Made by a program: the position numbers and the translations under genes
Source: Candidatus Saccharimonadales bacterium
GTDB lineage: Bacteria > Patescibacteriota > Saccharimonadia > Saccharimonadales > Saccharimonadaceae
Reading direction: 5' to 3'
Assembly (NCBI GenBank): GCA_038244885.1
Contig: JBBRTA010000002.1
Coordinates: 6,436-70,435 of the forward strand
DNA length: 64,000 bases
Part shown: one piece after another, positions 10,580 to 57,615 of the stretch
Numbering within the stretch: the stretch's first letter is position 1
How the letters are laid out: the number at the start of each line of letters is the position of its first letter
Notes under the pieces: generated by a model
Seen by the model: the letters and a program-made list of their open reading frames with translations, nothing else
Told to the model about the DNA's origin: nothing
Databases searched by the model: none

Positions 10580-11614
10580 TTATAAGCCATAGCGTCCCCG
10601 GAGGGCGTTGAAATTTAAATTAACCTCAGCAGTACTGAGTGCCCGGTTATAAACGCTGACATCACCCAGCTTACCCACAAGAGCATTACCGATATTAAAG
10701 GTACCTGGTAGTCCCAGCGGGGTAGATGTTAGATTTGGGCCTGTAGAGGAGACGTCCGTGCCATCGACGTAGATCTCCCTTTTTCCGCTCGAGTTTTGAA
10801 AGACAAAGCTGACAATATGCCACAAATCATCTTTTAGATTAAAATAACCGTAATCATAATAATCATCAGCTCCCCCATTTAGATATAGTAGTAGCCTATT
10901 TGTTCCTCCGTAGGCTAGGCTAACACCCTGATTGAAATTCATAATCTTCTGTATATTTGCGGGAGCAGTAGACACTAACTTCACGGCGGCACTTACCGTC
11001 CATTCTTGAGCAGCGGGAGTTTGGTTGAGAAAATTTGCCATCGATACATACTGTGTTCCGTCAAACGCCAAGGTGCCACCATTGGCCGTATCATATACGG
11101 TACTGTTAACAACAGTGCCATTGTTACCGTAGCCGCTAATGTCAGACCATTTCGTGCCCGTTCCTGGATAGGAGGTAGCCGAAGCCGCATCTAGATGCAA
11201 CATTAGACCAGACGATAAAAGACAACCACCAAGCGAAGGGGCGTCATCTTGAGTAATTTTAAATGTTTGATTACTTTTTATCGCAGAAATACAAAAAGTC
11301 TTATAGCCCAATGTACTATTCACTTGGTAGGAATAGGCAGTACCGGGACTCACCTTTAGACACTTATTGGTTGCGCTGTCTGGCTGGGCGCAGTCTATGG
11401 TGACCGGATAGCTATTGTTATCTATTTGGAATAACTTTAATTGCTGGTTAGCACCGTTGAGGTCAGATTGGAGCGACACGGCAATAGCCCGATTGTTAAC
11501 ACCCGTGTAGGCAACGATTGTGATAGCCGCCAAAATACCGATAATCACGATGACGATCAGGAGCTCAACGATAGTGAAACCCGAAAAAGAACGCCGATGA
11601 TTACCACTATTCAT
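10580..11614 (-). CDS. Type IV pilin-like protein with C-terminal LamG/concanavalin-A-like lectin domain
   Basis: Prepilin N-terminus SGFTIVELLIVIVIIGILAAITIVAY; C-terminal approx 200 aa match Laminin_G_3-type pattern (W.DISGYGNNGT, LAFDG, WHIVSFVF, IYVDG, GDVSVYNRALSTAEV). Confidence 0.75.
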   Translation of the reverse strand: MNSGNHRRSFSGFTIVELLIVIVIIGILAAITIVAYTGVNNRAIAVSLQSDLNGANQQLKLFQIDNNSYPVTIDCAQPDSATNKCLKVSPGTAYSYQVNSTLGYKTFCISAIKSNQTFKITQDDAPSLGGCLLSSGLMLHLDAASATSYPGTGTKWSDISGYGNNGTVVNSTVYDTANGGTLAFDGTQYVSMANFLNQTPAAQEWTVSAAVKLVSTAPANIQKIMNFNQGVSLAYGGTNRLLLYLNGGADDYYDYGYFNLKDDLWHIVSFVFQNSSGKREIYVDGTDVSSTGPNLTSTPLGLPGTFNIGNALVGKLGDVSVYNRALSTAEVNLNFNALRGRYGL

Positions 11615-13034: not shown

Positions 13035-14180
13035 TTAGTGAATGTAATTGTAACTCGCTGCTTGGCCAGCGGTCATCGTACGGTAACTTTTAACGTTCCA
13101 GCCACCATAAGCGGAGTTGTTCATTTCGCTAATATGGATGTCTCCGTTAGGGTCAACGCTTTCGATAACAGCCACGTGTCCATACCCACCGCCATTTTGC
13201 ATGACAGCTCCAAATGAAGGTGTGTTGTCAACACGATAGCCTGCACCCCGAGCGGCGCTAGCCCAACTTGAGGCATTACCCCAGAAGCTCCCAACTGGCA
13301 TACCAAGCTGCATGCGTCTTTCGTAAACATACCACGTGCACTGTCCGTAGCCATAACGGTTTCCCGCCGAACCGCGATCGGTATTGAACCCCGCGTTATA
13401 TCCACTGACACCGCCACCGCCACCGTAGCCATAATTGACGACTCTCGGCGCGACGTAGCCTGGGCGTTCGGTTGCTGGCAGGCTGGCATTCGGTAGAATA
13501 ATTTTGGCGCCCGGTGTCAAACCAGTGACATCAAGGTCGTTGTAGAGGACAACCCGAGCCTGGTCCACATTGTACTTTTGAGAAATAGCTGGTAGTGTAT
13601 CACCTGCTTTAACGGTATATTGCACACCATCTTTCGGTAGAATCTGTAGTACCGTGTTTGGAATGAGAGCATCGGAGGTCAGGTTATTCGCCCATTTAAT
13701 CGTATCCTTAGATATACCAAACTGGGTCGAGAGGCTATCTATCGTATCACCCGCCTTGACGGTATAGGCAACGATCGTGCGGCTGTCCGCGGTCGGTTGA
13801 AGAATTTGTGGCTTGGTGGTGGTCACGCCATCTGTTTGCGCAAGTTCGCCTTTCGCTTCCAACGACACCGAAAGGTTTGCGACGTTTGCCGCAATCGATA
13901 AGTTCGTGGTTTCTGCAAGGTTAGCAGCAATATTGGTAGCGACAAGTTCATTCACAGAGGTACGTTGCGTTTGAGTATCAGATGTAAGGGCTGACGCATT
14001 CGCGATACCGCCGGACTGCTGAGGTGCATGATAACCAACTGCGACTACAGCAGCAATGAGGGCAAAAACGCTGACATAAATGGCAATTGTTGAGTGTTGA
14101 GGTATGCCTTTCGCTCTTTTGCGATTTTTAGCTTGTACCTGCTGTCTTGGTGCGACAGTTGATCGTTGAGCAAAGCTCAT
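13035..14180 (-). CDS. Secreted peptidoglycan hydrolase: 2 x LysM + C-terminal CHAP domain
   Basis: N-terminal TM anchor; LysM repeats YTVKAGDTIDSLSTQFGISKDTIKWANNL and YTVKAGDTLPAISQKYNVDQARVVLYNDL; CHAP Cys (GQCTWYVYERR) and His (GHVAVIES). Confidence 0.85.
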   Translation of the reverse strand: MSFAQRSTVAPRQQVQAKNRKRAKGIPQHSTIAIYVSVFALIAAVVAVGYHAPQQSGGIANASALTSDTQTQRTSVNELVATNIAANLAETTNLSIAANVANLSVSLEAKGELAQTDGVTTTKPQILQPTADSRTIVAYTVKAGDTIDSLSTQFGISKDTIKWANNLTSDALIPNTVLQILPKDGVQYTVKAGDTLPAISQKYNVDQARVVLYNDLDVTGLTPGAKIILPNASLPATERPGYVAPRVVNYGYGGGGGVSGYNAGFNTDRGSAGNRYGYGQCTWYVYERRMQLGMPVGSFWGNASSWASAARGAGYRVDNTPSFGAVMQNGGGYGHVAVIESVDPNGDIHISEMNNSAYGGWNVKSYRTMTAGQAASYNYIH

Positions 14181-14434
14181 AGTGATCTGATTACGAATTA
14201 TCGTTCTCCTGCCGCCTGTATTACTACAAGGGCGTCTACCTTAGTTTGTCTTTCTTCTCGCTAAGAACGGGGTACGTGTCGACCGACTTCATTAGTTAAT
14301 ATTGGCTTTTGAAAGTGTTATTATTCGGTACCCGTACGACATTTATGGTAGGCTCATCTGTGCTTCGGGTTTCCCGCCCGCTGATATCGCCGCTAGGCTG
14401 TACCAGTAGTCGAAGACACAAATGTGCTTTCATA

Positions 14435-21877: not shown

Positions 21878-22405
21878 CTAATTAACAGCCACGAAGTAGT
21901 TCATGCCGTACAAACTATCCAGAGTGGTATTACACGTGCCGTCGGTGTCGGTTGTCGAGTGTGGCATCGTTTCCAGATTAGCGTAGACGTACGCTGTTGC
22001 GCCGCAGTCGTATTTCATATAATAAAAACAATCCTGCGACGGATATGTCCCGGAACAACCTAGATTAGTCAACGGGTCGGCGAGCTCCTTTGAAAGATAC
22101 CCACCGTTGATTAAGCATTGGTTTACCGAAAGAAGCGGGCCGGCACCGTCGTAGTCATTCCAATACCAGCCGTTCCCAGTCGCGCAACCCCCTGAGCTAC
22201 TGACAAAATTACCTTTGTCAACACCGTAGAGCTGGAGGGCTTTTGCAATCTGTGCTACATCTTCTTTTCGCTGGGCGTCCCGCGCCTTCGCTTGGATCCC
22301 GCTATAGGCGACAATCGTAATTGCCGCCAGAATGCCGATAACGACGATAACGATAAGGAGTTCAACGATAGTGAAGCCTGTTTGTTTTGCCGACATTTTA
22401 TTCAT
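21878..22405 (-). CDS. Type IV pilin (prepilin-type N-terminal methylation domain)
   Basis: MNKMSAKQTGFTIVELLIVIVVIGILAAITIVAYSG; four Cys in the C-terminal globular part. Confidence 0.85.
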   Translation of the reverse strand: MNKMSAKQTGFTIVELLIVIVVIGILAAITIVAYSGIQAKARDAQRKEDVAQIAKALQLYGVDKGNFVSSSGGCATGNGWYWNDYDGAGPLLSVNQCLINGGYLSKELADPLTNLGCSGTYPSQDCFYYMKYDCGATAYVYANLETMPHSTTDTDGTCNTTLDSLYGMNYFVAVN

Positions 22406-37999: not shown

Positions 38000-38051
38000 T
38001 TTCGGGTGACACTTTGGTGAAAAACCATTGTCGCTAAAGTGTCACCCGAAA
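38000..38051. repeat. Inverted repeat with 16-bp perfect arms, 20-nt spacer, about 45 nt upstream of the first island gene
   Basis: TTTCGGGTGACACTTT-N20-AAAGTGTCACCCGAAA. Confidence 0.9.
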
Positions 38052-38097
38052 GGGAATGACCGGCAATCCTGCCGTACTTCCCAGAAAGGGAGAAGAG

Positions 38098-38934
38098 ATG
38101 TCAGATAAACCCGAAAAAGCCTCGAAAGAGGAGATTGCGGTCATCGCAGCACTCGGCGATACCGGTCAAAAGGTGGTGGATTTCGTTCACAAGACGGTAT
38201 CCGACACGATGAAGGCCAACGCCGACGAGCTGCGTGCAGCAATCGGGCGGTTCAACGAGCACGTCGCATCATGCGAGGCAAGGGAGATCGGTTACAACGA
38301 TCTCCTGAACTCGATGAGCGACGCGCTCAACAAGGCCCGCGGTGCACACAGTTCCGTTGCAACGAGCGTCAATGACGGCAAGCAGGTCACGCCTGCCGCA
38401 GTCGCTGAGGCAGTCGAAGCAACAGAAAAGGTGCAGAGGCTCGAGGACTCGTGGAAGGTGATGGTCGACAAGACCCTCGAAGCCCACGACAAGACCCTCG
38501 ACGACCTCAAAGGTCGGGTTTCGACACTCGAAGGCAAGAACAAGGTTCCGACGATGGCACCCGTGCCAGCACCGGAACCGAACCCCAAGCCCAAGGCTGT
38601 CGAGCCAGAACCCAACGTCGTCACGGTCGAGCCAAACAAGCCCGACCAGACGAACGTCTTCGTGGCACCGTCACAGCCGACGGTCGTCCGCTACGTCAAC
38701 CCCAAACTTTGGGGCGGCCTGGCACGGGCGTTGGCAGCCGCCGGCTTCATCATCGGTGGCATCGTCGTCCTGAACATTTGGGGAGGTTTCTTCCCCGGTG
38801 TTCCCGCAGCCATTCAGTGGGTGCGATGGTTGACACTACTGTTGATACCTGTGTTCGGCCTGTTTACAGGCGGGGCACTTGGTTCATACATCGAGTCGAA
38901 GCAGCAACCCGTAAGGGAAACAGTCGTGGCGTAG
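38098..38934 (+). CDS. Hypothetical membrane protein of the GC-rich island (helical N-domain, PxP-rich linker, two C-terminal TM helices)
   Basis: GC3-rich ORF; ATG 38098 preceded by AAAGGGAGAAGAG; C-terminus LARALAAAGFIIGGIVVLNIW and WLTLLLIPVFGLFTGGALGSY. Confidence 0.6.
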   Translation: MSDKPEKASKEEIAVIAALGDTGQKVVDFVHKTVSDTMKANADELRAAIGRFNEHVASCEAREIGYNDLLNSMSDALNKARGAHSSVATSVNDGKQVTPAAVAEAVEATEKVQRLEDSWKVMVDKTLEAHDKTLDDLKGRVSTLEGKNKVPTMAPVPAPEPNPKPKAVEPEPNVVTVEPNKPDQTNVFVAPSQPTVVRYVNPKLWGGLARALAAAGFIIGGIVVLNIWGGFFPGVPAAIQWVRWLTLLLIPVFGLFTGGALGSYIESKQQPVRETVVA

Positions 38935-39056
38935 CCACAGGGCGTGTAGGAGCCTAGTTCTCCTCTTTGTCGTTCAGTCGACGCACGTCCACGAATCACA
39001 ACCGGGAAGGCCTCGGTGTGAGCATGCCCCCAAAGGGCAGAGAGGGGGTTCTTCTC

Positions 39057-40085
39057 ATGAAGAATCTTCGTCATTGGCTCTCCGGGGCCTTTATTTCTGG
39101 CGGCGCCATCGTCGTCGGGATCATGGTCCTGTTGTTGTCAACCATATTCACCACCATGGGTCAGCCGACCAATGTGTCCGCTACCGAGCCGACGCCGACT
39201 GCAACCGCAACGGCAACGGCCACACCGGTGGCCACCAAGCTGACGACATCCAAGTACATCATCGCGATGCCGGAACGAGGTAACGGCCGTCTGAATAAAG
39301 ATGGCGTTACCAATCGTGGTAACGTCGAAAAGTTCAGGACGCAGATCCTGAACCAGGCTAAAAGCGACCCTCTGACACTCTTCCTTTACTACCAAGCTTC
39401 ACCGCTTGGTACGACAAGGCCTCTTAGCAATGAGTCAATCATAGCTGAGGGCGGGAAGGTCATGAACGGAAACGTCTACTCCAAGGAAGGCATTCGTGCC
39501 TACAAGGAGTGGGCAGCCCTCTGGACATCGTCGGCCACGCAGATCTCTGCAGTTGACGAAATCACGTTCCAGGGGAACAACACTGGTGTGTCAGCCAAGA
39601 ACACCCCGACCACCAGTAAGAGCGTCACTGGTAAGGACAAATCGGGTTACGACATCCGATACACTGATGCGATGAGTAAGACGGTGAAAGAGCATTCCGC
39701 TCTGAACCGTTGTACTCAGCCCACCGGTAATAGGATACCGAACGTCCCGCCGGGACCGACGGACAACCCAGTCCCGACGCCGACACCTACACCGACGCCG
39801 ACGACGCCGACGTGCCCACCCGGGTACGTTGGTACACCGCCAAAGTGTCTCCAATCCAAGGTTCCTTCACAGGATCCCGCGCCAAGAGGCAACGCTCCCG
39901 TCGGGGGAGGTTTGAACCAGGACCCTGGTCCTGGAACGGTCCCCCCGGCGCGTCCAGCGCCGGTCGCACCACCCGTTGGGTCAACCCCCGACCCGGCACC
40001 AGCCCCTGCGCCAGAGCCTTTGGCCCCACCGCCGAGCGCTCCAGCAACGGGAACATCCTGCGCACCAGGAATACCTGTGTGCTGA
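39057..40085 (+). CDS. Hypothetical secreted/anchored Pro-Thr-rich protein of the GC-rich island
   Basis: ATG 39057 preceded by GAGAGGGGG (ATG 39024 or 38967 start also possible); N-terminal TM GAFISGGAIVVGIMVLLLSTIF, TEPTPTATATATATP linker, Pro-rich C-terminus ending CAPGIPVC. Confidence 0.6.
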   Translation: MKNLRHWLSGAFISGGAIVVGIMVLLLSTIFTTMGQPTNVSATEPTPTATATATATPVATKLTTSKYIIAMPERGNGRLNKDGVTNRGNVEKFRTQILNQAKSDPLTLFLYYQASPLGTTRPLSNESIIAEGGKVMNGNVYSKEGIRAYKEWAALWTSSATQISAVDEITFQGNNTGVSAKNTPTTSKSVTGKDKSGYDIRYTDAMSKTVKEHSALNRCTQPTGNRIPNVPPGPTDNPVPTPTPTPTPTTPTCPPGYVGTPPKCLQSKVPSQDPAPRGNAPVGGGLNQDPGPGTVPPARPAPVAPPVGSTPDPAPAPAPEPLAPPPSAPATGTSCAPGIPVC

Positions 40086-40094
40086 GTTGACAAC

Positions 40095-40131
40095 GAGTTG
40101 GGTGCGTGGCCTTCAGTCACGCACCCAACTC
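40095..40131 (+). terminator. GC-rich 14-bp hairpin right after the island ORF2 stop (no T-tract)
   Basis: GAGTTGGGTGCGTG-N9-CACGCACCCAACTC. Confidence 0.4.
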
Positions 40132-40360: not shown

Positions 40361-41665
40361 ATGAGCAACTTAATTTCACTCATACGACGCGCCCCTAAGC
40401 GCACCAGTACATTACTCGCGATTGCAGCCGCAGTCGTCGTTGTTCCAGCCGCCCTATTTGCATGGGGACCGACTCGTCCAACCTACACAATCGAAACACC
40501 AGCCGATCACATTACGTTTAACTCAATCACCAACAACCCAAATATTGGTGACGAGCGTAATTTCGTTGGTATCCGCGAAACTGGCACAACCAACCTATGG
40601 TCCGACAACATGACCGTCGTAAAAGACAAGTCATACACGGTCCGTATGTACGTACACAACAACGCAGCCGCCAACCTCAACCTGGTGGCCGAGAATGTCA
40701 CCGCTAAGTTCAACCTGCCAACGACCACTGGGAAATCCCTCCAGGTCAACGGTTTCTTGGACTCAAGCAACGCAACGCCAACCGAAGTTTATGACCACGC
40801 AATTTTTACTAGCGCCGAGGATTTTAACCTGGCGTACGTAAGCGGCAGTCTAAAATTTGAGAATAACTTCTTTGGCGCAACCGGTACTGCTCTTCCCGAG
40901 AGTATCTTTACCAGCGCCGGAGCAAAACTTGGCTACGACAAGCTTGACGGCCGCATTCCTGGTTGTTTCCAGTATGCCGGCTACGTGAGCTTTACAGTCA
41001 AGCCACAATTTGCCCCAGTCTCACAGTTTACTATGAGCAAAATGGTCAGCAAACACGGTGATAACAAGTGGGTTGAAAGCTACGCCGCACAAGCTGGCGA
41101 AGTAGTTGACTACCTTATTCAGTACAAGAACGTCGGTGGAGCACAACAGAACGACGTCACTTTCCGTGACACACTTCCTACTGCTACGACCTACGTCAAC
41201 GGTTCAACAACCTTTGGTAACTCAACGACCCCTGCTGGAGTCAAAGCAAGCGACAACATCGCTAACGGAACTGGCATCAATGTCGGTTCATATGCTCCAG
41301 GCGCAAACGCATGGGCAATCTTTAGCGCCAAAGTTGCAGCCAACGATCAACTTCCAACCTGTGGTGCCAACACGCTTGTAAACAAAGCTAAGGTTACAAC
41401 TGGTGGTGGTTCAATCGAAGATACAGCAAACGTCACCGTTTCTAAAACGTGTAAGACAGCTGAATGTAAGCCTGGTATTCCAGTTGGTGACAAGCGATGT
41501 GAAGAAACTCCAGTAACACCCGTTACTCCAGTCACTCCCGTCACCCCAACCCAACTACCAAAAACGGGCGTCAGCGACAGTATCGCTCCCCTGCTTGGAC
41601 TTGGTTCACTGATTGCAAGTGTTGGTTATTACCTCACTAGCCGTCGTGCTGCCCTGCTCAAGTAA
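40361..41665 (+). CDS. LPXTG cell-wall-anchored surface protein with DUF11-type conserved repeat domain
   Basis: Signal peptide, DUF11/TIGR01451-like segment AQAGEVVDYLIQYKNVGGAQQNDVTFRDTLP, (TPV)x4 stalk 41507-41542, LPKTG 41555-41569 + hydrophobic stretch + RRAALLK; SD AAGGAG. Confidence 0.85.
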   Translation: MSNLISLIRRAPKRTSTLLAIAAAVVVVPAALFAWGPTRPTYTIETPADHITFNSITNNPNIGDERNFVGIRETGTTNLWSDNMTVVKDKSYTVRMYVHNNAAANLNLVAENVTAKFNLPTTTGKSLQVNGFLDSSNATPTEVYDHAIFTSAEDFNLAYVSGSLKFENNFFGATGTALPESIFTSAGAKLGYDKLDGRIPGCFQYAGYVSFTVKPQFAPVSQFTMSKMVSKHGDNKWVESYAAQAGEVVDYLIQYKNVGGAQQNDVTFRDTLPTATTYVNGSTTFGNSTTPAGVKASDNIANGTGINVGSYAPGANAWAIFSAKVAANDQLPTCGANTLVNKAKVTTGGGSIEDTANVTVSKTCKTAECKPGIPVGDKRCEETPVTPVTPVTPVTPTQLPKTGVSDSIAPLLGLGSLIASVGYYLTSRRAALLK

Positions 41666-41705: not shown

Positions 41706-41741
41706 AAATTACCCCCGCTATCCATGCGGGGGTAATTTTTG
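41706..41741 (+). terminator. Intrinsic terminator after the LPXTG gene
   Basis: AAATTACCCCCGC-tatccat-GCGGGGGTAATTT followed by TT. Confidence 0.8.
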
Positions 41742-41757
41742 TTATACTGAAATAACT

Positions 41758-41979
41758 ATGACAAAACAAAAGAAGAAACGCAACAAAGTCTACCATGGTG
41801 CCGATGCGGCCATGACCCGTCCGGTTGTCACCCGCATTTCAGCTGCCAACCGCAATAAAGCCAACCAATGGTGGTTTGACCGCAAAGCGGCTTTGAAGCC
41901 TATTCTTATCACCAGCTTGGTGGTTATAGTTGTCGTCTGGCTAATCTTTGAGCTAGTTCGCGTTATCAACGGAGCGTAA
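41758..41979 (+). CDS. Small basic single-TM protein (73 aa)
   Basis: MTKQKKKRNKVYHG..., TM ILITSLVVIVVVWLIFELV; TATACT box 9 nt upstream of the ATG; 3' end overlaps the kinase gene by 27 nt. Confidence 0.4.
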   Translation: MTKQKKKRNKVYHGADAAMTRPVVTRISAANRNKANQWWFDRKAALKPILITSLVVIVVVWLIFELVRVINGA

Positions 41980-44121
41980 TTTTTCAAGCGGTAGATGGAA
42001 CCCGAACGTACTGCCCTGCCCCTCGACCGATTCAAACACGACTTTGCCACCATGGGCATCGATGACTTTCTTGGCCAAGAAGAGCCCAACGCCGGTGCCA
42101 TCTGGTCGCTGCTTGCGGGCGTTGCTGGCCCGGTAAAACTTAGTGAATAGTTCGGCCTGCTCGGTTAATGGCACGCCGATACCGGTGTCTTTGACACTAA
42201 AGACCACTACCGCGTCTTGGATCGTCAGTTTGACGTGGATGGTGGTATTCTCGGCCGAATAATACAGGGCGTTGTCGGCAAAATTCATAATTACCTGTCT
42301 TATTTTTCCTTCGTCCAAATCAAGTATTGGAAATCTCTTTGGAGGCGTGTAAGAAAACGAGAGGTTTCGTGACGCTGCGGTAGTCAAGAGGCTATCGATT
42401 TCCTGTTCGACAACCTTGGCAAGATTAGAGGGACGTTTGTCGATTATGAATTTACCCGTTTGGAGCCGTGAGACGTTCAAGAAATCGTTGATTAAATGCA
42501 CCATGCGCTCGCTACTAGTGAACGCCTCTTCCAATAGATGCTTTTGGGCATCAGTTATCTTGCCGGCATCACCTTCGATGACCATACTGATATAACCCTT
42601 CACGCTCGTCAGGGGGGTTCTTAGCTGATGGCTGGCCATACCGACGAACTCATCCTTGGCCTCATCAAGACGATGAAGTTGCGCGTTGCTGACACGAAGC
42701 TCGTGCGTCGCTTCGTTGATGCGTTGTTGCAGGGTAGCATTCAAATCCTTCACTTCTTGAACGGAGTGGGCATTCTGAATTGCAATGACGAGTTCATCGG
42801 ATATCGTTTCAAGTATCTGAATGTCGCGAGCAGCGTAGTTCGAAACTCGGTGCGGACCGAGACAAAAATACCCAATAACAGTATCGTTCTGTACAAGGGG
42901 AAGAATGAGTTCAAGTTTGTGGCTCACCATCATACGGCACATAACGTCATCGGTTTCGAGTAACGATGCAACGATGACATTGGCGGTATGACTTTGAACG
43001 AAACTATCCATCATTTGCGCATCAGCTTTTGGTAATACCGAATGTCCTGTCGTGCCCACGCTAATTGGGCGTTGCTTTGTTGAATATAGAAAGAAGAAGG
43101 CCTGTTCAGACTTTAAGGTGATACCAATCTCTTTAGCGACAATCTTCATTAAGTGATGCAAGTCAGTCGTCGAGGCGAGAGTACCGTTTAAACGAGAGAA
43201 GAAATCATTTCGGCTGTACTCATCTTGAAAGAAAATACGCCTTGTTAAGTGATCAAAGAAGTGCCTGAGGGGTTGAAAGACTAACGCCAGTATTAAACCG
43301 ATCAATACGCCGCTTGTAGTTTGCTGCGGACTCGTGAAGGTACTTCCAAAAAATGTAGACAGTGCGAGCGCAGCTACAAAATAGAGACCGGTTAACGTCG
43401 CAAGAACCATCGTATAAGTGACGCTGCGAACAACCGCCGAGCGGATATCAAACAGGCCCTGACGCACAACCGCATAGCCTACTCCTGCAATTATCAACGA
43501 TCCAAACAGAAGCCCTGTCGTCGATAAATCAAAATTGTTATATAGCGTCGGTAGTAACACATTAGTGACTAACATAGCGATGATCGCAATGCCTATCGTC
43601 ACGAGTAAGTTTTTAGAATACGCCTTCACCTTTCGGTCGGAAGAGCGTGCGCCGGAGCCAAGCTGAAAAAAAACAAATATAGCCAATGCCAGTATCGACA
43701 AAAAATAAACAATAGCCAAAGCACCGAATTGGATGCCGACAGACGTTGCCGCCTGATCGCCAATCGTTATATCATTAACGACAAACGGTGTTAAGGCAAG
43801 CACTGCAACAGTTATCGCTAGAGCTAACGCGGTACCCGGCAGCTGTTGTCGTCGCGTAATGGCCGTTGCGAAACTACCCAATATATAAAACGCCGCCAAG
43901 GCCGCAACAAACAATATTTTATTGATTATTAATAATCCATCATGACCAATCTGAATCAGATTACTCAGATAATTTAGCGCAGCGAGGGCTGCAAAGGAGA
44001 TTAGAAAACTAAAAAAATATTTATTCAGCTCGTTTTTAATACCGGTACGAAAAACAATGATAGCAAAAGACAAAAAAATAACTTCAACCAGCAAGACAGA
44101 AATTAGCACTAGCATGTTCAT
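41953..44121 (-). CDS. Sensor histidine kinase: about 10 TM helices - GAF-like - HisKA - HATPase_c
   Basis: H-box ASHQLRTPL, N-box NFADNALYYS, G1 DTGIGV, G2 GTGVGL; N-terminal 330 aa highly hydrophobic; TATAAT 6 nt upstream of the ATG. Confidence 0.9.
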   Translation of the reverse strand: MNMLVLISVLLVEVIFLSFAIIVFRTGIKNELNKYFFSFLISFAALAALNYLSNLIQIGHDGLLIINKILFVAALAAFYILGSFATAITRRQQLPGTALALAITVAVLALTPFVVNDITIGDQAATSVGIQFGALAIVYFLSILALAIFVFFQLGSGARSSDRKVKAYSKNLLVTIGIAIIAMLVTNVLLPTLYNNFDLSTTGLLFGSLIIAGVGYAVVRQGLFDIRSAVVRSVTYTMVLATLTGLYFVAALALSTFFGSTFTSPQQTTSGVLIGLILALVFQPLRHFFDHLTRRIFFQDEYSRNDFFSRLNGTLASTTDLHHLMKIVAKEIGITLKSEQAFFFLYSTKQRPISVGTTGHSVLPKADAQMMDSFVQSHTANVIVASLLETDDVMCRMMVSHKLELILPLVQNDTVIGYFCLGPHRVSNYAARDIQILETISDELVIAIQNAHSVQEVKDLNATLQQRINEATHELRVSNAQLHRLDEAKDEFVGMASHQLRTPLTSVKGYISMVIEGDAGKITDAQKHLLEEAFTSSERMVHLINDFLNVSRLQTGKFIIDKRPSNLAKVVEQEIDSLLTTAASRNLSFSYTPPKRFPILDLDEGKIRQVIMNFADNALYYSAENTTIHVKLTIQDAVVVFSVKDTGIGVPLTEQAELFTKFYRASNARKQRPDGTGVGLFLAKKVIDAHGGKVVFESVEGQGSTFGFHLPLEKLRSVDNAN

Positions 44122-44141
44122 ATCGTGATTATACTATAAAC

Positions 44142-45038
44142 CTAGTAGCCTGCGCGTGGGTTTTTTCCCAACTTGGTCCGCAGTGCGGCGACAGCAAAAC
44201 TGGCAAAAAAGTGTGCTCTGGGAAATCGTACGTTTATCCTACCGTCAATGGCGTCTATCGACGTCCCGTGCGGAGCATAACAGATCCAGTGTTGGCGCTC
44301 TGGGCTTATTTGCTGTAAAAGATGCGCAAGAGCTTGAACCGAGGCGTATGCTGCTGCCATTTTGACGCCCGGTGAAACGGTCGGGGTGGGTATATCGCGG
44401 TCTTCAATAGCTTTGAATATATTCGTATCGGCGTATGAAGGGATATGTGGCACCCAACGATACAGCGGGACGTTCGCCTTAGCGATTTCATCCAAATCTG
44501 CGTTTGGATCAAGGCCTAGATACTCCTCAAATTTTTTACCATCAGGGGCAAAGGAAGTTGTATACGCACCAAAACCGATGTTAAGCGTCATCAGAACTGG
44601 CAATTTTTCTTTACGAGCCGCTCGCGCCAACATGACACCAAGCTCATGCTTCGTAAACTCGGTTTCGTCTACTACCAAGTCTGCTCCCACGACGAAAGTC
44701 TGAACGTTACCAGGCGTAATACCTTCAATAAACACCGCGACCTGCGCCTGTGGATTTACCGCAAAAATCATACTCGCGATAACCTCGGCCTTATTTTTAC
44801 CAAGTGTATCGAACGTTGCACCAGCCTGCCGATTCAGATTATCTATTTCAAAAACCTCCGGGTCGGCCAGACGAAAGTTACCAATCCCCAATTGAGCCAA
44901 GGTAACAGCTAGTTCACCCCCATCGCCACCAACCCCAGCAATAGCCACGGTCGACTGCTGTAAATGTTCGTGCTCAACACGACTAATAAAACCTAGATTG
45001 CGATTGAACTGATTCGGGTTGGGCTGGGGATCATTCAT
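44142..45038 (-). CDS. ThiF/MoeB/HesA-family E1-like adenylyltransferase
   Basis: Nucleotide loop IAGVGGDGGELA, FEIDNLNRQ, DETEF; no C-terminal CxxC pairs or rhodanese domain seen; ATG overlaps the upstream stop (ATGA). Confidence 0.85.
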   Translation of the reverse strand: MNDPQPNPNQFNRNLGFISRVEHEHLQQSTVAIAGVGGDGGELAVTLAQLGIGNFRLADPEVFEIDNLNRQAGATFDTLGKNKAEVIASMIFAVNPQAQVAVFIEGITPGNVQTFVVGADLVVDETEFTKHELGVMLARAARKEKLPVLMTLNIGFGAYTTSFAPDGKKFEEYLGLDPNADLDEIAKANVPLYRWVPHIPSYADTNIFKAIEDRDIPTPTVSPGVKMAAAYASVQALAHLLQQISPERQHWICYAPHGTSIDAIDGRINVRFPRAHFFASFAVAALRTKLGKNPRAGY

Positions 45039-45778
45039 TGCCGATTACGATCGTCGCTGACAGCACGCATAGCGACCCTACCGAGTGACGGTTGCTCGAA
45101 AAAGGTAGCAAGCTTCTCTGGCATGCCACTCAAGGACCGACCTGATTTATCACGTTCTTGAACTTGTCCTACCACACTGCGAGGGTGCATAGATACTAGC
45201 AAATTCACGGTGTTGTATTCGTCTATTTGTTGTGGTTCCGCAATTGTCTCAAGTTTAATGCCAATAAAATCATCGAGGTAGCGACGCAAAGGCTTTTCGA
45301 TGACTGCATATACTTCAGCATCACTATCCGAAGTGTCCTGAAGCGCCGCACGAATCAGGGACATACTGACAATACGTGACAATGTGGGCGGTATCCCCGA
45401 ATCAACCATAAAGCGTGATATTTCGCGAACATTTTCAGGTAAGGTAACGTCAAATAAAGTCTCGCACGGTAGCCTACCGCCATGATCGCGTCGAATAACA
45501 CGTATCGTTCCCAGTGTCTCACCATCGTCGCTTAATGCGACAAAATGGTCAGACTGACTATCGTACATATCGTACTCCGCACCGTTTTCATCTAATACAT
45601 CTGCTGATAAAAATGATCGGTCTTCAACATAAGTTCTCGCTCGTAATCGACCCATAGACAGCCATAATTTTCTATCTTCTTTCAGAATATGACTGACGCT
45701 AAATCCATCTTGAAAGATACGCTCGCTATTGAATCGCGGTTTCTCATGTTCGGGGGTAAGGGTATCAATGGATAACAT
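45035..45778 (-). CDS. LuxI/FeeM-fold GNAT N-acyltransferase (autoinducer-synthase / N-acyl amino acid synthase-like)
   Basis: GRLRARTYVEDRSF, GAEYDMYDSQSDHFVAL, GTIRVIRRD, REISRFMV (E-x-S-R motif); start at ATG 45778 or 45796, longer ORF would cover the divergent receiver start. Confidence 0.7.
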   Translation of the reverse strand: MLSIDTLTPEHEKPRFNSERIFQDGFSVSHILKEDRKLWLSMGRLRARTYVEDRSFLSADVLDENGAEYDMYDSQSDHFVALSDDGETLGTIRVIRRDHGGRLPCETLFDVTLPENVREISRFMVDSGIPPTLSRIVSMSLIRAALQDTSDSDAEVYAVIEKPLRRYLDDFIGIKLETIAEPQQIDEYNTVNLLVSMHPRSVVGQVQERDKSGRSLSGMPEKLATFFEQPSLGRVAMRAVSDDRNRQ

Positions 45779-45817
45779 TCCCTTCAAAATTATCATTATG
45801 CTACAATAAATGCAACT

Positions 45818-46189
45818 ATGACTAAAATAGCTATCATCGAAGACGATCCCGTTATTAGCCAAATGTACCGCATGAAATTTGAAGCGGATGGCTTTGACGT
45901 GCAACTCGCCAATAACGGCAAACGAGGCGTAGCGCTCGTCCAGGCATTTTCACCTGACATTATATTGCTTGACCTTCAAATGCCCGAGATGGGCGGCGCT
46001 GAAGCCCTCGCGATCATCCGCAAGGAAGAACAAAGCAAAAATACACCTGTCATCATCCTCACCAACCTCGGCGAAGAAGAATCACCAAAAGAAATACGCA
46101 GCCTTGGTATTCATAGCTACATCGTCAAAGCAGACCTGACTCCCCGACAAGTTGTCCAACGAGTCAAAGAAGCCCTCGGCACCAACTAG
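45818..46189 (+). CDS. Stand-alone response-regulator receiver domain (CheY-like, no output domain)
   Basis: IIEDD, phospho-acceptor ILLDLQMPEMGG, TNL, conserved Lys in YIVKA; TACAAT 10 nt upstream of the ATG. Confidence 0.9.
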   Translation: MTKIAIIEDDPVISQMYRMKFEADGFDVQLANNGKRGVALVQAFSPDIILLDLQMPEMGGAEALAIIRKEEQSKNTPVIILTNLGEEESPKEIRSLGIHSYIVKADLTPRQVVQRVKEALGTN

Positions 46190-53906: not shown

Positions 53907-54410
53907 ATGTATCGTCGAGGGTTTAGTATCGTTGAATTAATTATTGTCATCACTGTGATGGGAATATTGCTCGTATTAGGCGTGGTGAATATGCGCAGCA
54001 CACAGTCACGCGCCCGCGACGACGAACGCAAGACCGACATCGAAACGATTGCTCTGCAACTTGAGAATTACTTTAATACTGGCACGGACGGCTGGAATGC
54101 ATCGACCGGTTCCTATCCGACGACGGACTTAGTGTCTAGTGTTCAAACAACGCTACGCGACGCCGATATGAAATCCTTCACCGCGCCCGGGGCAGCTAGT
54201 CTGGCAGCGAGTTTTGTCACGGCAACGAACAATACACAGACGACAGCCGGCGTCACGCCGGCGCCAACGATTAGCACCTACGTCTACCAGCCATTACAGC
54301 CAGACGGGACGCTCTGTACCGGCGTGATGACCACCTGCCGTAAATTCAACCTCTACTATATGCTGGAAACCGACGGTTCCTCTAACATGGTAAAGAGTAA
54401 AAACCAATGA
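53907..54410 (+). CDS. Minor (pseudo)pilin with prepilin N-terminus
   Basis: MYRRGFSIVELIIVITVMGILLVLG. Confidence 0.75.
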   Translation: MYRRGFSIVELIIVITVMGILLVLGVVNMRSTQSRARDDERKTDIETIALQLENYFNTGTDGWNASTGSYPTTDLVSSVQTTLRDADMKSFTAPGAASLAASFVTATNNTQTTAGVTPAPTISTYVYQPLQPDGTLCTGVMTTCRKFNLYYMLETDGSSNMVKSKNQ

Positions 54411-54796
54411 CGTCTAAATCCACCCAAGCGGGCTTCTCAGCGGTTGAACTATTAATCACTTTGTTTGTAGCCGCCGCATTCTTGGTGGCCGGCTACCAGC
54501 TGTACAGTCTGATTATTAAGGATAGCGGGCAGACCCGATCGCAAGCCCGTGCCAGCAACGTGACCTACGATTACATGCGTCGTTATTCGGTAACTCCCTA
54601 CACTGCTAACCCTTGTGCCACGGCGAATCCGCTGACCGCTTCTCCCCTCACCGTGACCGGTCTCAGTGCCGTCACAATCTCAGTTGTCATCACCTGCCCT
54701 TATCCAGCCAGGACCAACGTTTCACGAATAGAGGTTACTACCCTCTATAACTCGCCGCAGCAAACGATAAAACAGGCGACCTATGTCAAATTTTAG
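54407..54796 (+). CDS. Minor (pseudo)pilin with prepilin N-terminus
   Basis: MTSKSTQAGFSAVELLITLFVAAAFLVAGY; ATGA overlap with the previous gene. Confidence 0.75.
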   Translation: MTSKSTQAGFSAVELLITLFVAAAFLVAGYQLYSLIIKDSGQTRSQARASNVTYDYMRRYSVTPYTANPCATANPLTASPLTVTGLSAVTISVVITCPYPARTNVSRIEVTTLYNSPQQTIKQATYVKF

Positions 54797-55622
54797 ATCA
54801 CCATCACAACCAGCCATTTCTGGTTTTACGATCGTCGAGATGTTAATTATTGCACCGATCGTCCTGCTGACCATCGGTGCCTTTATCACCGTTATCGTGA
54901 ATATCACTGGTGAAGTACTAGCTAGCCGTAACGCTAACGTACTCGCCTATAACGTCCAAGACACGCTCAACCGCATAGAAAATGATGTCAAGGCCAACGG
55001 AACATCGTTTGTGGAGGCCAACCGAATTACTCCTCTAACGTCACCCCAAGGGTATGATGATAACATAGCCGGATTCAGCAATGTCGGGGCCAGTGGCACT
55101 ATGCTCATCCTCAATACACCAATGACGACCGGCAATCCCGCTACGCTCTCCAGCAATGTCCTCTACTTCAACGCGCCCAATAGCTGTGCTAGCCTGAACT
55201 TCAACAAAAACGCAACAATGATGATGAACATCGTCTATTTTGTCAAAACTGACGCTATCACTAACATTGGTACATTATGGCGGCGAACGATTGTACCGTC
55301 TAACTATTTGACCGCCGGTACCTGTGGTACACCGTGGCAGCAGCCAAGCTGTCTGACGGGGAGCGGGACCCTCTGCACGACGCAAGATATTCGCCTACTT
55401 GATGGCATCGCCGTGAATGACTTTGTCTTGCAATATTTCACCCTTGCCAGCGACACAGTTCCTAACAGCATCGCTGGCGATATCGCCCAACCGGCTGCTA
55501 GCCGCGCCACAGCCCTGCAGTCAGCCACGACCGTTGGTGCGACACTTACCGCCTCCAAAACCGCCGCTGGACGCACCGTCAGCCAAACCGGTACGATGCG
55601 AGTCAGTCGAGTCACAAATTAA
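54783..55622 (+). CDS. Minor (pseudo)pilin, larger PilW-like type
   Basis: SGFTIVEMLIIAPIVLLTIGAF; 14-nt overlap with the previous gene. Confidence 0.7.
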   Translation: MSNFRSPSQPAISGFTIVEMLIIAPIVLLTIGAFITVIVNITGEVLASRNANVLAYNVQDTLNRIENDVKANGTSFVEANRITPLTSPQGYDDNIAGFSNVGASGTMLILNTPMTTGNPATLSSNVLYFNAPNSCASLNFNKNATMMMNIVYFVKTDAITNIGTLWRRTIVPSNYLTAGTCGTPWQQPSCLTGSGTLCTTQDIRLLDGIAVNDFVLQYFTLASDTVPNSIAGDIAQPAASRATALQSATTVGATLTASKTAAGRTVSQTGTMRVSRVTN

Positions 55623-55652
55623 AAAAGTTCTGTAAATCTTTACAAGAAGTGC

Positions 55653-55681
55653 TTGTGTTTAAAATTACGAACCAGTATCAT
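55653..55681 (+). promoter_or_regulatory. Promoter of pilin paralogue 1
   Basis: TTGTGT - 17 nt - TATCAT, 40 nt before the ATG; same box layout as paralogues 2 and 3. Confidence 0.5.
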
Positions 55682-55720
55682 GATTACATACACTAACTAC
55701 TACATAGGGGGCATTAGGAC

Positions 55721-56251
55721 ATGGTTCTTAACAAAATGAAAGACACTAATAAGACAGCCGGTTTCACGATCGTCGAACTGTTGATTGTTATCGTCGTTAT
55801 AGGTATCTTGGCAGCAATCACGATTGTGGCTTATAGCGGTATTACGGCCCGCGCCAACACGACAAAAGCCCAGACAAATGCCGTTCAGACTCAAAAGGTA
55901 GCCGAAACCTACAATGCAGAGTTAAGTGCGTACCCAAAAACAACTGCTAACTTTGGAGCCGCTCCAACAGCTAAATTGCCTTCTGGTGTTACTCTGTTTT
56001 ACACGGGTGGTACCGGTGTTAACGCAACACCAAGTGCAACCAACGGTGGTGGTACGGTTTGGTACCAGTGGTGCGGTTCTACCAACCTGATAGGAACCTC
56101 CGATGCACAAGGTGGCCGTATCCAATACTGGGACTTTTCTACCAATGCTCTCGCTGTCGCTCCAGCCATAATATATGTCGGGACTGGTTCCGCTACGCTT
56201 GGTGCGGGTGTGGGTACAGCCTGCAACACGTGGTTTACCCCTGCTTCATAA
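55721..56251 (+). CDS. Type IV major-pilin paralogue 1
   Basis: KTAGFTIVELLIVIVVIGILAAITIVAYSGITARANTTKAQTNA; SD GGGGG 9 nt upstream. Confidence 0.88.
   Translation: MVLNKMKDTNKTAGFTIVELLIVIVVIGILAAITIVAYSGITARANTTKAQTNAVQTQKVAETYNAELSAYPKTTANFGAAPTAKLPSGVTLFYTGGTGVNATPSATNGGGTVWYQWCGSTNLIGTSDAQGGRIQYWDFSTNALAVAPAIIYVGTGSATLGAGVGTACNTWFTPAS
55760..55861 (+). repeat. 102-nt near-identical block, copy 1 (pilin N-terminal coding region)
   Basis: ggtttcacgatcgtcgaactgttgattgttatcgtcgttataggtatcttggcagcaatcacgattgtggcttatagcggtattacggcccgcgccaacacg; 2 mismatches to copy 2. Confidence 0.9.
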
Positions 56252-56274
56252 CATTTCGTAAGCTAACATGTCAC

Positions 56275-56305
56275 AAAAGAAGCTTCATCAAACGAAGCTT
56301 CTTTT
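56275..56305 (+). terminator. Intrinsic terminator after pilin 1
   Basis: AAAAGAAGCTTC-atcaaac-GAAGCTTCTTTT. Confidence 0.8.
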
Positions 56306-56367
56306 GGAGTCGCTATCTAGTACCACCTTGCTCTTCTTGGAGTGACCAACGTCTGATTATAATTCGC

Positions 56368-56396
56368 TTGTGGTTATATGTGTCTTATGGTACATT
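56368..56396 (+). promoter_or_regulatory. Promoter of pilin paralogue 2
   Basis: TTGTGG - 17 nt - TACATT with TG one nt upstream of the -10. Confidence 0.5.
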
Positions 56397-56434
56397 TAAC
56401 GTATAAGTAATCAATTAACGGGGGGCAGGTACAA

Positions 56435-56899
56435 ATGTCAAATATGAAAACAAGCACTAACAGTCGAAGCGGTTTCACGATCGTCGAGCTGTTGATTGTT
56501 ATCGTCGTTATCGGTATCTTGGCAGCAATCACGATTGTGGCTTATAGCGGTATTACGGCCCGCGCCAACACGGTCAAGGCACAAACCAACGCCGAGAGTA
56601 TCCAAAAGGTCGCCGAAGCCTACAACGCCGATCCACCTACAGGCGCATCGGGCTATCCTGCTACACGAGGGGCACTAACCGGATACAATGGTTCAGCCAA
56701 AATCCCGTCAGGTATCACCTGGGGTACACCTGCGAATACGTCAACTGCGACTCAAGCATATAATGAGTATGTACCTGGAACTACCCCCGCTAACGGTGGT
56801 TGTATCTATTACTGGAACTACACCACTAGTGCTATCAACTACACCGGAGTGGGTGTTGCGGTAGTCAACGCGGCCGCTACTACTTGCACCAGCGCCTAG
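56435..56899 (+). CDS. Type IV major-pilin paralogue 2
   Basis: RSGFTIVELLIVIVVIGILAAITIVAYSGITARANTVKAQTNA; SD GGGGGG. Confidence 0.88.
   Translation: MSNMKTSTNSRSGFTIVELLIVIVVIGILAAITIVAYSGITARANTVKAQTNAESIQKVAEAYNADPPTGASGYPATRGALTGYNGSAKIPSGITWGTPANTSTATQAYNEYVPGTTPANGGCIYYWNYTTSAINYTGVGVAVVNAAATTCTSA
56471..56572 (+). repeat. 102-nt near-identical block, copy 2
   Basis: Differs from copy 3 at one position (c/t near the 3' end) by my reading. Confidence 0.9.
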
Positions 56900-56930
56900 A
56901 TAGCGTCAGCTCAATATTAAGCTACGGATT

Positions 56931-56962
56931 ACAAAGGTAGGCTCGTGAGAGCCTACCTTTGT
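56931..56962 (+). terminator. Hairpin after pilin 2
   Basis: ACAAAGGTAGGCTC-gtga-GAGCCTACCTTTGT (14-bp stem). Confidence 0.7.
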
Positions 56963-57020
56963 AAAGTAACGAGGTAAGGATGCCTGGTTTCGAGATAGAC
57001 ACATAGTTGATTCATATCGC

Positions 57021-57049
57021 TTGTGGTTACAGCCTCACTGTGTTATATT
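57021..57049 (+). promoter_or_regulatory. Promoter of pilin paralogue 3
   Basis: TTGTGG - 17 nt - TATATT with TG one nt upstream of the -10. Confidence 0.5.
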
Positions 57050-57090
57050 TAACCTATAATTTCATCATTCGTTAGGGGGCAACTGAAAAA

Positions 57091-57615
57091 ATGGCACATC
57101 TAAAAACAAATTCTCAATCACAGAGCGGTTTCACGATCGTCGAGCTGTTGATTGTTATCGTCGTTATCGGTATCTTGGCAGCAATCACGATTGTGGCTTA
57201 TAGCGGTATTACGGCCCGCGCTAACACGACAAGCGGTCAACAGGCGGCGGATAACATCGCCCGCAAAGCAGAGTTATACTACGCCGAGCCTACCACTTCA
57301 AGCTACCCTGCAACCTTCGCCGCGCTATCCGGGGCTGCCGCAACTACCAGTTACTACGTCCCGGCCAGTGCTGGAACACTCGTGACAACAGCGATAGCTG
57401 CCGCACCAGCCAAACCCTCGTATATCAACTTCTACACCTGTGGTACAAGTGGCGCGGTTGCCGCACCTACCTCCATTGGACTCATCACTGCCGTCACCGG
57501 TAATAAGATTGGTACGTGGGACTATACCAATAATGTCGTTGTCTTTGACACGGCGGGCGTCACCAGTGGTCTTGTTGGGACGTTTAACGTCGCCTGCTTT
57601 ATCAGCACGACTTAG
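57091..57615 (+). CDS. Type IV major-pilin paralogue 3
   Basis: QSGFTIVELLIVIVVIGILAAITIVAYSGITARANTTSGQQAA; SD GGGGG. Confidence 0.88.
   Translation: MAHLKTNSQSQSGFTIVELLIVIVVIGILAAITIVAYSGITARANTTSGQQAADNIARKAELYYAEPTTSSYPATFAALSGAAATTSYYVPASAGTLVTTAIAAAPAKPSYINFYTCGTSGAVAAPTSIGLITAVTGNKIGTWDYTNNVVVFDTAGVTSGLVGTFNVACFISTT
57127..57228 (+). repeat. 102-nt near-identical block, copy 3
   Basis: See copies 1 and 2. Confidence 0.9.

Follow-up and report, generated by a model that had tools for sequence, protein, structure and literature searches.

Bacterial oxazolones are known to be formed by a route in which an N-acyl amino acid synthase (NAS) is combined with a ThiF-like, ATP-dependent cyclase. 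This route has been established for OxzAB of Pseudoalteromonas rubra (de Rond et al., bioRxiv 10.1101/2020.06.11.147165), for TyzACB of Mycobacterium tuberculosis (Rv2336/Rv2337c/Rv2338c; Grigg et al. 2023, PMC10404671) and for TrzAS, also of M. tuberculosis (Kleetz et al. 2025, PMC12856293). In all three systems an oxidase that depends on flavin (FDO) and belongs to the nitroreductase superfamily is fused or adjacent (bioRxiv 10.1101/2020.06.11.147165; PMC10404671; PMC12856293). With TrzS, cyclisation precedes desaturation, and the saturated oxazolone was formed in vitro at limiting oxygen (PMC12856293). The physiological role of oxazolones and of related heterocycles derived from N-acyl amino acids is explicitly left open in all three experimental papers, where signalling is suggested without evidence. 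The present work concerns a locus from Candidatus Saccharimonadales bacterium (assembly GCA_038244885.1), which contains a NAS-ThiF pair together with genes for a sensor histidine kinase and a stand-alone receiver. It was found in a stretch of 64,000 nt (contig JBBRTA010000002.1, positions 6,436 to 70,435, forward strand), which is called the window in the following and to which the coordinates refer:

45035..45778, minus strand: NAS of the LuxI/FeeM GNAT fold, 247 aa, first gene of the predicted minus-strand operon
44142..45038, minus strand: ThiF-like adenylating/cyclising enzyme, 298 aa, predicted to belong to the NAS-partnered (oxazolone-synthetase-type) clade
41953..44121, minus strand: sensor histidine kinase, 722 aa, with 9-10 transmembrane (TM) helices (putatively HisKA_7TM-type), GAF, HisKA and HATPase_c domains
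45779..45817, no strand: AT-rich divergent intergenic region of 39 nt, separating the starts of the NAS and receiver genes
45818..46189, plus strand: stand-alone receiver (single-domain response regulator), 123 aa, divergent from the NAS gene

The explanation which we favour, and to which we would give an even chance of being correct, is that this locus encodes a relative of the oxazolone pathway that lacks the desaturase and is connected to a two-component system, with a minus-strand operon and a divergent receiver. A previous reading of the window from its letters and open reading frames (ORFs), here called the sequence-only reading, had described the four ORFs with the same coordinates, strands and domains as were obtained from the ORF list and Pfam. 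It had also pointed out that the stop of the NAS gene and the start of the ThiF gene share the letters ATGA, and that the NAS and receiver genes start 39 nt apart in divergent orientation; both features are present in the sequence. The overlap would couple the translation of NAS and ThiF, and a spacing of 20 nt separates ThiF from the kinase. Promoter-like motifs in the 39-nt gap were not more frequent than in shuffled sequence, and therefore no promoter is located or claimed. Since the same gene order was present in every related Saccharibacteria locus for which enough DNA was available, the four-gene arrangement is far beyond chance.

Like TyzACB, the locus possesses a stand-alone NAS with the fold of N-acyl-homoserine lactone (AHL) synthases and FeeM, and, as a separate protein of about 300 aa, a ThiF homologue, which in TyzACB performs the ATP-dependent cyclisation. 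TyzA belongs to another NAS sequence family, however, the tyz cluster is without a kinase or receiver, and the flavin oxidase TyzC (nitroreductase superfamily), which leads to the conjugated tyrazolone, has no counterpart at the window locus. With OxzAB and TrzAS the locus shares the position of NAS directly upstream of ThiF, which in those two-gene operons is the ATP-dependent cyclase; the trzAS genes of M. tuberculosis, moreover, adjoin cyclic di-GMP (c-di-GMP) genes (PMC12856293), as do the actinobacterial relatives of the window pair. In OxzB and TrzS, ThiF is fused to a nitroreductase domain; the window ThiF consists of a single domain, and the fusions in its family join ThiF to NAS. The position of D217 in TrzS is occupied by Glu (E127) in the window ThiF, and neither oxzAB nor trzAS is linked to a two-component system.

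The sequence of reactions proposed in the sequence-only reading, namely acylation of an amino acid followed by adenylation or cyclisation of its carboxylate, agrees by analogy with the route shown for OxzAB, TyzACB and TrzAS, the product being a prediction in the present case. The same reading had stated that no system with this combination of genes was described; this has to be corrected, since NAS plus ThiF is a described pathway, and pairs of LuxI-like and kinase genes from the candidate phyla radiation (CPR) were catalogued in 2020. In that study LuxI homologues from CPR genomes, 18 of them next to sensory kinases and with examples from Giovannonibacteria, WWE3 and Kerfeldbacteria, were proposed as complete AHL quorum sensing systems, and ThiF appears in neither the text nor the supplements (Bernard et al. 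2020, PMC7567580). The likeness to the window lies in the position of LuxI-like GNAT genes beside CPR sensor kinases. What is new is thus not the NAS-ThiF pairing but its desaturase-less, often fused variant with a dedicated two-component system. No paper connecting Saccharibacteria with oxazolones was found in the literature search.

Conservation of the locus was evaluated by a scan with the ThiF alignment, using one genome per species, which resulted in 70 loci; these were annotated with profiles built for NAS, ThiF, the sensor region of the kinase, and the receiver. NAS was located directly upstream of ThiF, or fused to it, in 65 of the 70 loci, and three more had ThiF followed by NAS. The NAS-ThiF pair is an obligate unit, and the co-occurrence of ThiF and GNAT genes, on which the sequence-only reading had staked its interpretation, was thus obtained. 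Among the 37 species loci of Saccharibacteria, NAS was upstream or fused in 36 (fused in 10 of these), the 37th being cut by a contig end; a kinase followed the pair in 36 loci, with one more missed only through overlapping gene calls; and upstream receivers, one to three per locus, were present in 30. Further NAS-ThiF fusion proteins turned up outside the count of these 10 species. One and the same sensor region was found in all the Saccharibacteria kinases, and the gap between ThiF and kinase had a median of 45 nt. A locus from Uhrbacteria showed the same array, and one from Moranbacteria was ordered ThiF-NAS-kinase. An association of the kinase with the pair in both Patescibacteria and Actinomycetota had been considered in the sequence-only reading; it holds for Saccharibacteria (36-37 of 37), Uhrbacteria and Moranbacteria, but not for Actinomycetota, where 23 of 24 species loci had NAS upstream of or fused to ThiF and none had a kinase or upstream receivers.

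The actinobacterial loci stem mostly from Leucobacter, with Microbacterium, Cryobacterium and Acidimicrobiia in addition. A protein of about 290 aa without Pfam match and a GGDEF-EAL protein always precede the pair in Actinomycetota; a GGDEF-EAL gene adjoins the pair in 21 loci, all of them actinobacterial (24 actinobacterial species scanned; cluster c5, e.g., L006:2750-5077). Furthermore, PilZ, FeeM and ThiF domains were found fused in a single protein of 680 aa (P0248). The GGDEF-EAL neighbours and the PilZ fusion link the NAS-ThiF pathway to c-di-GMP signalling. That the pair is repeatedly tied to signal-transduction proteins is the main reason for favouring a putative signalling role.

The ThiF-like protein matched PF00899 with 105.4 bits. 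Its best NCBIfam models were PRK08223 (184 bits), PRK14851 (116 bits) and PRK14852 (104 bits), with lower scores for ThiF (82 bits), Rv1355c/TrzS (77 bits), MoeB (62 bits) and TcdA (56 bits), and the protein remained below every curated NCBIfam cutoff (304 for TcdA, 449 for MoeB, 159 for ThiF). The trzAS locus of Nocardia farcinica was recovered in a plasmid search; its TrzS homologue reached 950 bits with the "Rv1355c family" model, and the oxidase half of this homologue matched positions 335-614 of PRK14851. PRK14851 is therefore a model of ThiF-oxidase fusions, while PRK14852 is longer (989 positions), with ThiF in the middle, and was treated as a NAS-ThiF-FDO model. The comparison of the window ThiF with TyzB and OxzB is an indirect one, by way of NCBIfam models and FDO-linked relatives. 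The protein shares 36% identity with the ThiF domain of the N. farcinica TrzS homologue and 37-45% with ThiFs of Bacteroidota; the ThiF of Taibaiella (Bacteroidota) is situated in a ThiF-FeeM-GNAT-nitroreductase cluster. The GxGGDGG loop, the arginine finger DNLNRQ, K83 and the acidic stretch D124-E-T-E127 are conserved in the window ThiF. E127 aligns with D217 of TrzS, D130 of MoeB and the second Asp of the TcdA motif IDAID, and the change from Asp to Glu is a conservative one. The AlphaFold2 model (pLDDT 91.9) shows a fold of the ThiF/MoeB/MccB/PaaA type.

A neighbour-joining tree of ThiF proteins was constructed with 200 bootstraps and rooted on Escherichia coli MoeB, with E. coli ThiF and TcdA as additional outgroups. 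The window family, together with the oxidase-linked ThiFs of Bacteroidota, was split from the E. coli enzymes and TrzS, with a bootstrap support of 76%. As judged from its sequence, the window ThiF is a member of the clade of NAS- or FDO-partnered ThiFs, and not of TcdA, MoeB or ThiF. It could be argued that the protein is a housekeeping enzyme, i.e., an orthologue of TcdA, MoeB or ThiF, or else an E1-like or RiPP (ribosomally synthesised and post-translationally modified peptide) enzyme resembling MccB or PaaA, with a protein, tRNA or peptide as substrate. The nearest solved structure by sequence is indeed TcdA (E 6e-15), the nearest by fold are AclA, PaaA, ThiF, MoeB and MccB, and weak E1-E2 matches were obtained with PADLOC. 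Yet the scores for TcdA and MoeB, whose orthology the sequence-only reading had named as an argument against itself, are far below their cutoffs, the tree groups the protein with NAS-linked ThiFs, and there is no conserved gene nearby for a ThiS/MoaD-like protein, a small Gly-Gly protein or a precursor peptide. The window ThiF contains one Cys in the whole protein and hence neither a zinc site nor an E1-type thiol or catalytic Cys. We consider this explanation to be very improbable. An anti-phage defence system was also rejected as a candidate, since PADLOC produced only generic E1-E2, HATPase and receiver matches.

Among the solved structures, the one closest by fold to the ThiF model is AclA of Tenacibaculum discolor, which was determined with substrate (PDB 9EGB/9EGC, released 2025); a function for AclA was not found in the literature searched and nothing is built on it here, although the structure may inform on the type of substrate. 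The ThiF orthologues from Uhrbacteria (449 aa; L020:2395-3744; P0066, P0072) are extended at the C-terminus by about 150 aa, in which membrane helices are predicted; this suggests that they could be membrane-anchored cyclases. On plasmid pN9T4-3 of Rhodococcus qingshengii (NZ_AP026694.1; L082, 2849-5732) a pair of GNAT N-acyltransferase and ThiF genes is split by an IS256 transposase; this ThiF is 40% identical to that of the window and no oxidase gene is nearby. Domain architectures were obtained by a scan of 1.84 billion representative proteins. The profile for this library had 534 positions and covered NAS plus ThiF, owing to the fused sequences; the resulting counts (23,249 / 4,884 / 434) comprise mostly ThiF proteins and say little about NAS, and thus they were used for domain architectures only. 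Near relatives (set P0233, P0222, P0254, P0225) included ThiF-nitroreductase (687 aa), FeeM-ThiF-nitroreductase (870 aa), methyltransferase-ThiF-FeeM (949 aa) and ThiF-glycosyltransferase (746 aa) proteins. These fusions suggest that a wider and largely unexplored chemistry may exist around the activation of N-acyl amino acids.

The LuxI/FeeM fold which the sequence-only reading had ascribed to the GNAT protein is supported by profiles, structure prediction and residues. Scores above gathering were obtained for Autoind_synth (PF00765, 31.6 vs 24), FeeM (31.6 vs 27) and Acetyltransf_5 (PF13444, 31.1 vs 22.4). With the AlphaFold2 model of NAS (pLDDT 87, pTM 0.85) the best Foldseek matches were the AHL synthases RpaI, BjaI, TofI, LasI and MesI (E about 1e-9), with FeeM next. 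The residues R46, Y50, E68, D70, D73, R93, E119, S121 and R122 align with conserved residues of LasI, and R46, Y50, D70, D73, R93, E119, S121 and R122 are conserved in the NAS family. Word-indexed searches with NAS retrieved only 5 and then 13 proteins, and for this reason the breadth of the family was taken from ThiF.

These data could also mean that a true LuxI-type AHL quorum sensing system is present, in which the GNAT protein would use S-adenosylmethionine (SAM) and acyl-coenzyme A (acyl-CoA) or acyl carrier protein (acyl-ACP), the kinase would be a LuxN-like sensor, and ThiF would be unrelated or accessory. Such a reading is implied by Bernard et al. 2020 (PMC7567580), where the CPR pairs of LuxI-like and kinase genes are listed as AHL candidates, and by the JGI annotation, which names a homologue "N-acyl-L-homoserine lactone synthetase". 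PF00765 is above its cutoff, all canonical LuxI residues are conserved in NAS, and the best structural matches are AHL synthases, CoA-dependent ones especially. However, FeeM and PF13444 score equally well, the TraI model of AHL synthases reached 16.8 bits with NAS (cutoff 292), and no LuxR-type gene was seen in the Pfam-labelled neighbourhoods. The LuxN model gave 8.5 bits with the kinase (vs 1550), without any significant stretch, and a LuxN-like sensor was therefore rejected. Synthesis from SAM proceeds by self-lactonisation, without ATP-dependent activation of a carboxylate, and yet ThiF is coupled or fused in essentially every locus; this obligate coupling to a carboxylate activator would argue against a SAM-based release of AHL. 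An AHL system of the LuxI type would thus appear quite unlikely.

The kinase matched GAF_2 (28.9 bits), HisKA (61.1 bits) and HATPase_c (92 bits). Hydropathy of residues 1-290 indicated eight clear hydrophobic segments and one weaker segment, corresponding to 9-10 TM helices, in agreement with the approximately ten helices and the domains mentioned in the sequence-only reading. Of 38 kinase orthologues, 15 matched HisKA_7TM (PF16927, best E 2e-10) and 19 matched GAF_2, although the window kinase itself had no PF16927 match at E<=0.1. H498 and the N and G boxes are invariant among the 38 aligned kinases, and F132, Y139 and P191 in the TM region are conserved. No ligand of HisKA_7TM is reported in the literature searched. 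The receiver matched Response_reg with 81.6 bits, and the residues E8-D9-D10, D52, T82 and K104 are in place.

In luxMN, ainSR and cqsAS, an autoinducer synthase gene is located beside the gene for a histidine kinase with several membrane passes, by which a hydrophobic signal is detected, and the information is passed on by phosphotransfer, without a LuxR-type receptor. The window has the same layout of a synthase gene next to a multi-pass membrane kinase. It differs in that the kinase is putatively of the HisKA_7TM type with a GAF domain, non-hybrid and without significant LuxN score, in that the receivers are single-domain proteins, and in the predicted chemistry of the synthase.

From these comparisons the following scheme may be drawn. 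NAS, on the grounds of homology, would produce an N-acyl amino acid. This would be adenylated by ThiF, a homologue of TyzB, OxzB and TrzS, and cyclised to a labile, lipid-like heterocycle. In the absence of a flavin-dependent oxidase at the locus, a saturated 2-alkyl-5(4H)-oxazolone would be expected, or, should a nucleophilic side chain be present on the amino acid, a lactone or lactam instead. Either compound would be short-lived and lipid-like, unlike the stable arylidene-oxazolones known so far, and the product of the desaturase-less branch is probably reactive. The presumably co-transcribed kinase might sense the product, or its N-acyl amino acid precursor, through the membrane or GAF domain, as gene linkage would imply, and then phosphorylate the orphan receiver or receivers, forming an autoinducer-like circuit with a layout similar to luxMN or cqsAS. 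In Actinomycetota the same pair of enzymes would be coupled to c-di-GMP proteins in place of the kinase.

Several points weigh against this signalling scheme. With the FDO domain of N. farcinica TrzS, the FDO of Taibaiella and a hidden Markov model from the two sequences as queries (phmmer, tblastn), matches were found only in L078, L079 and L083, i.e., two loci of Bacteroidota and one of Nocardia; no FDO was detected across the 64 kb of the window, nor at any locus of Saccharibacteria or Actinomycetota within about 8 kb, genome-wide searches not being included. Similarly, no nitroreductase was present in the Pfam-labelled neighbourhoods. TyzA and TyzB alone gave no detectable cyclised product in vivo, and thus a pair without FDO may not release a free oxazolone. 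In a pairwise comparison, no similarity was detectable between the window NAS and the TrzA homologue of N. farcinica. The receivers consist of a single domain and are without an output domain. Finally, Actinomycetota maintain the NAS-ThiF pair without any kinase, and folD, a Mur ligase gene and a DUF11 gene are also conserved neighbours of the locus in Saccharibacteria, whose genomes are strongly syntenic, so that the linkage of the kinase could in part be due to inheritance rather than function.

Another possibility is that ThiF acts as a ligase, with the N-acyl-aminoacyl adenylate or a transient oxazolone as activated intermediate and transfer of the N-acyl-aminoacyl group to a nucleophile such as an amine, a lipid head group, a cell wall peptide or a protein, or that it serves for epimerisation of the amino acid; the kinase would then control, or respond to, the pathway as a function of the cell envelope. 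It is established peptide chemistry that saturated 5(4H)-oxazolones are labile and act as acylating agents, and oxazolones are readily hydrolysed or alcoholysed, which would be compatible with such a role, as would the missing product of TyzA and TyzB and the membrane extension of the Uhrbacteria ThiF. In many Saccharibacteria loci (L008, L010, L021, L026 etc.) the interval between folD and the receivers contains a Mur ligase gene and a gene for a MurL-type epimerase or an Asp/Glu racemase; in mechanism, ATP-dependent epimerisation is close to the chemistry of oxazolones. On the other hand, the cassette includes no conserved acceptor-specific enzyme or transferase, the peptidoglycan genes are missing from the actinobacterial loci, and the closest characterised relatives release free heterocycles. 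A ligase or epimerase function would seem unlikely, though it deserves to be kept in mind.

The conserved order of folD, Mur ligase and DUF11 genes, the pair without kinase in Actinomycetota, and the missing HisKA_7TM ligand could also be taken to mean that kinase and receivers are mere syntenic neighbours, which sense an unrelated cue, while NAS and ThiF produce a membrane or defensive lipid, a role that has been proposed for the mycobacterial tyrazolones. Such a coincidence is not what the arrangement suggests: pair and kinase are on the same strand with median gaps of 45 nt and no spacing of terminator size, the linkage recurs in Uhrbacteria and, rearranged, in Moranbacteria, and signalling partners of the GGDEF-EAL and PilZ types are found where the kinase is missing. 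We regard it as a rather improbable explanation.

The phylogeny of ThiF bears on the relation between the two phyla. ThiFs of Leucobacter and Cryobacterium formed one clade in 200 of 200 neighbour-joining bootstraps, and in all 200 this clade joined a subset of the Saccharibacteria, to the exclusion of the subclade of the window and of the outgroups. Those of Microbacterium and Acidimicrobiia were interspersed among Saccharibacteria sequences, and neither the Saccharibacteria nor the Actinomycetota ThiFs were monophyletic in any bootstrap replicate of the distance tree. This topology suggests that the NAS-ThiF pair may have been exchanged between Saccharibacteria and the phylum to which their known hosts belong, Actinomycetota; for one cultivated Saccharibacterium, Leucobacter has been documented as a host (PMC9894109). 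One could go further and speculate, as a long shot, that the product of NAS and ThiF is a chemical language shared by Saccharibacteria and their actinobacterial hosts, the enzyme pair having moved between Saccharibacteria and Microbacteriaceae/Acidimicrobiia. The hosts would keep the synthase pair under control of c-di-GMP, the epibionts would carry synthase plus membrane sensor kinase, and Saccharibacteria would detect N-acyl-amino-acid heterocycles made by the host and by themselves, in order to find hosts or to time attachment. In a chemical variant of this long shot, the pair would form an AHL-like lactone from an N-acyl hydroxy-amino acid by ATP-dependent cyclisation, which would represent a second route to AHL-type signals.

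In the window, the locus is flanked by folD, by a class F sortase gene and by genes for two LPXTG proteins, one ice-binding-like and one of the DUF11 type (Pfam/NCBIfam). Two of the features adjoin the kinase gene:

40361..41665, plus strand: DUF11/LPXTG surface protein, a conserved neighbour according to homologue clusters, which is only a candidate for membership in the module
41758..41979, plus strand: ORF of 73 aa with one C-terminal TM helix, convergent with the kinase gene and overlapping its 3' end

In 30 loci the kinase had a member of the homologue cluster of the DUF11 LPXTG protein as its neighbour; since folD and the Mur ligase gene are conserved neighbours as well, synteny alone may account for this. 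The sortase and LPXTG-type genes had been reported in the sequence-only reading, which saw in them a parallel to exosortase loci with TIGR03694 and PrsK-PrsR. The genes are there, but the parallel could not be upheld. TIGR03694 is the best NCBIfam match of NAS, and the idea of an N-acyl-amino-acid-type signal with a multi-TM/GAF kinase is similar; however, the score was 44.3 bits against a cutoff of 111.95 and covered only the N-terminal half, a search for PrsK with the N-terminal 459 aa of the kinase gave no match at E<=1, and the receivers are not sigma-54 activators. Sortase and ice-binding genes adjoin the locus only in the window and two close relatives, whereas the relative L004 (76% identical) has other genes at this position. 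With family membership, PrsK similarity and sortase linkage all failing, the exosortase analogy was rejected.

The 73-aa ORF has a basic N-terminus, and an ORF of the same size was called at the same place in the relatives L001-L003. Just upstream of it, after the DUF11 gene, is a strong terminator-like hairpin with a 13-bp stem (41706-41738). A local peak of G+C content (58% vs about 49% elsewhere) extends from 38001 to 40100 and coincides with two ORFs for repetitive proteins rich in Pro, Thr and Ala (TPTPTP and PAPAP runs), which are probably surface proteins. More distant from the locus, at 14206-14353 on the minus strand and upstream of the ORF at 13035-14180 (minus strand), a cis-regulatory RNA of the lysM-TM7 motif was found (Rfam RF03005, 105 bits). 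Together with the nearest relatives, this motif assigns the window to Saccharibacteria (TM7). Many genes for type IV pilin-like proteins with the N-terminal signature GFTIVELLIVIVVIGILAAITIVAY are present at 10580-11614 (minus strand), 21878-22405 (minus strand) and 53907-57615 (plus strand), among them three paralogues in tandem at 55721-57615. In Saccharibacteria, the association with hosts is mediated by type IV pili.

The cassette would provide a first genomic hint that molecules of the oxazolone type act as signals. The genetic link between a biosynthetic pair and a sensor kinase with receivers, which extends through the lineage, and the parallel links to c-di-GMP in other phyla make the idea of oxazolone signalling, and the way in which Saccharibacteria sense partners, approachable by experiment. 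The desaturase-less branch, which often takes the form of a single NAS-ThiF fusion, should yield a product that is chemically different from, and more reactive than, the known oxazolones. Saccharibacteria live as obligate epibionts and have very few regulatory systems; for them, a cassette of synthase and sensor that is conserved, and in part common to the Actinomycetota that serve as hosts, could be a plausible handle on the recognition of hosts.

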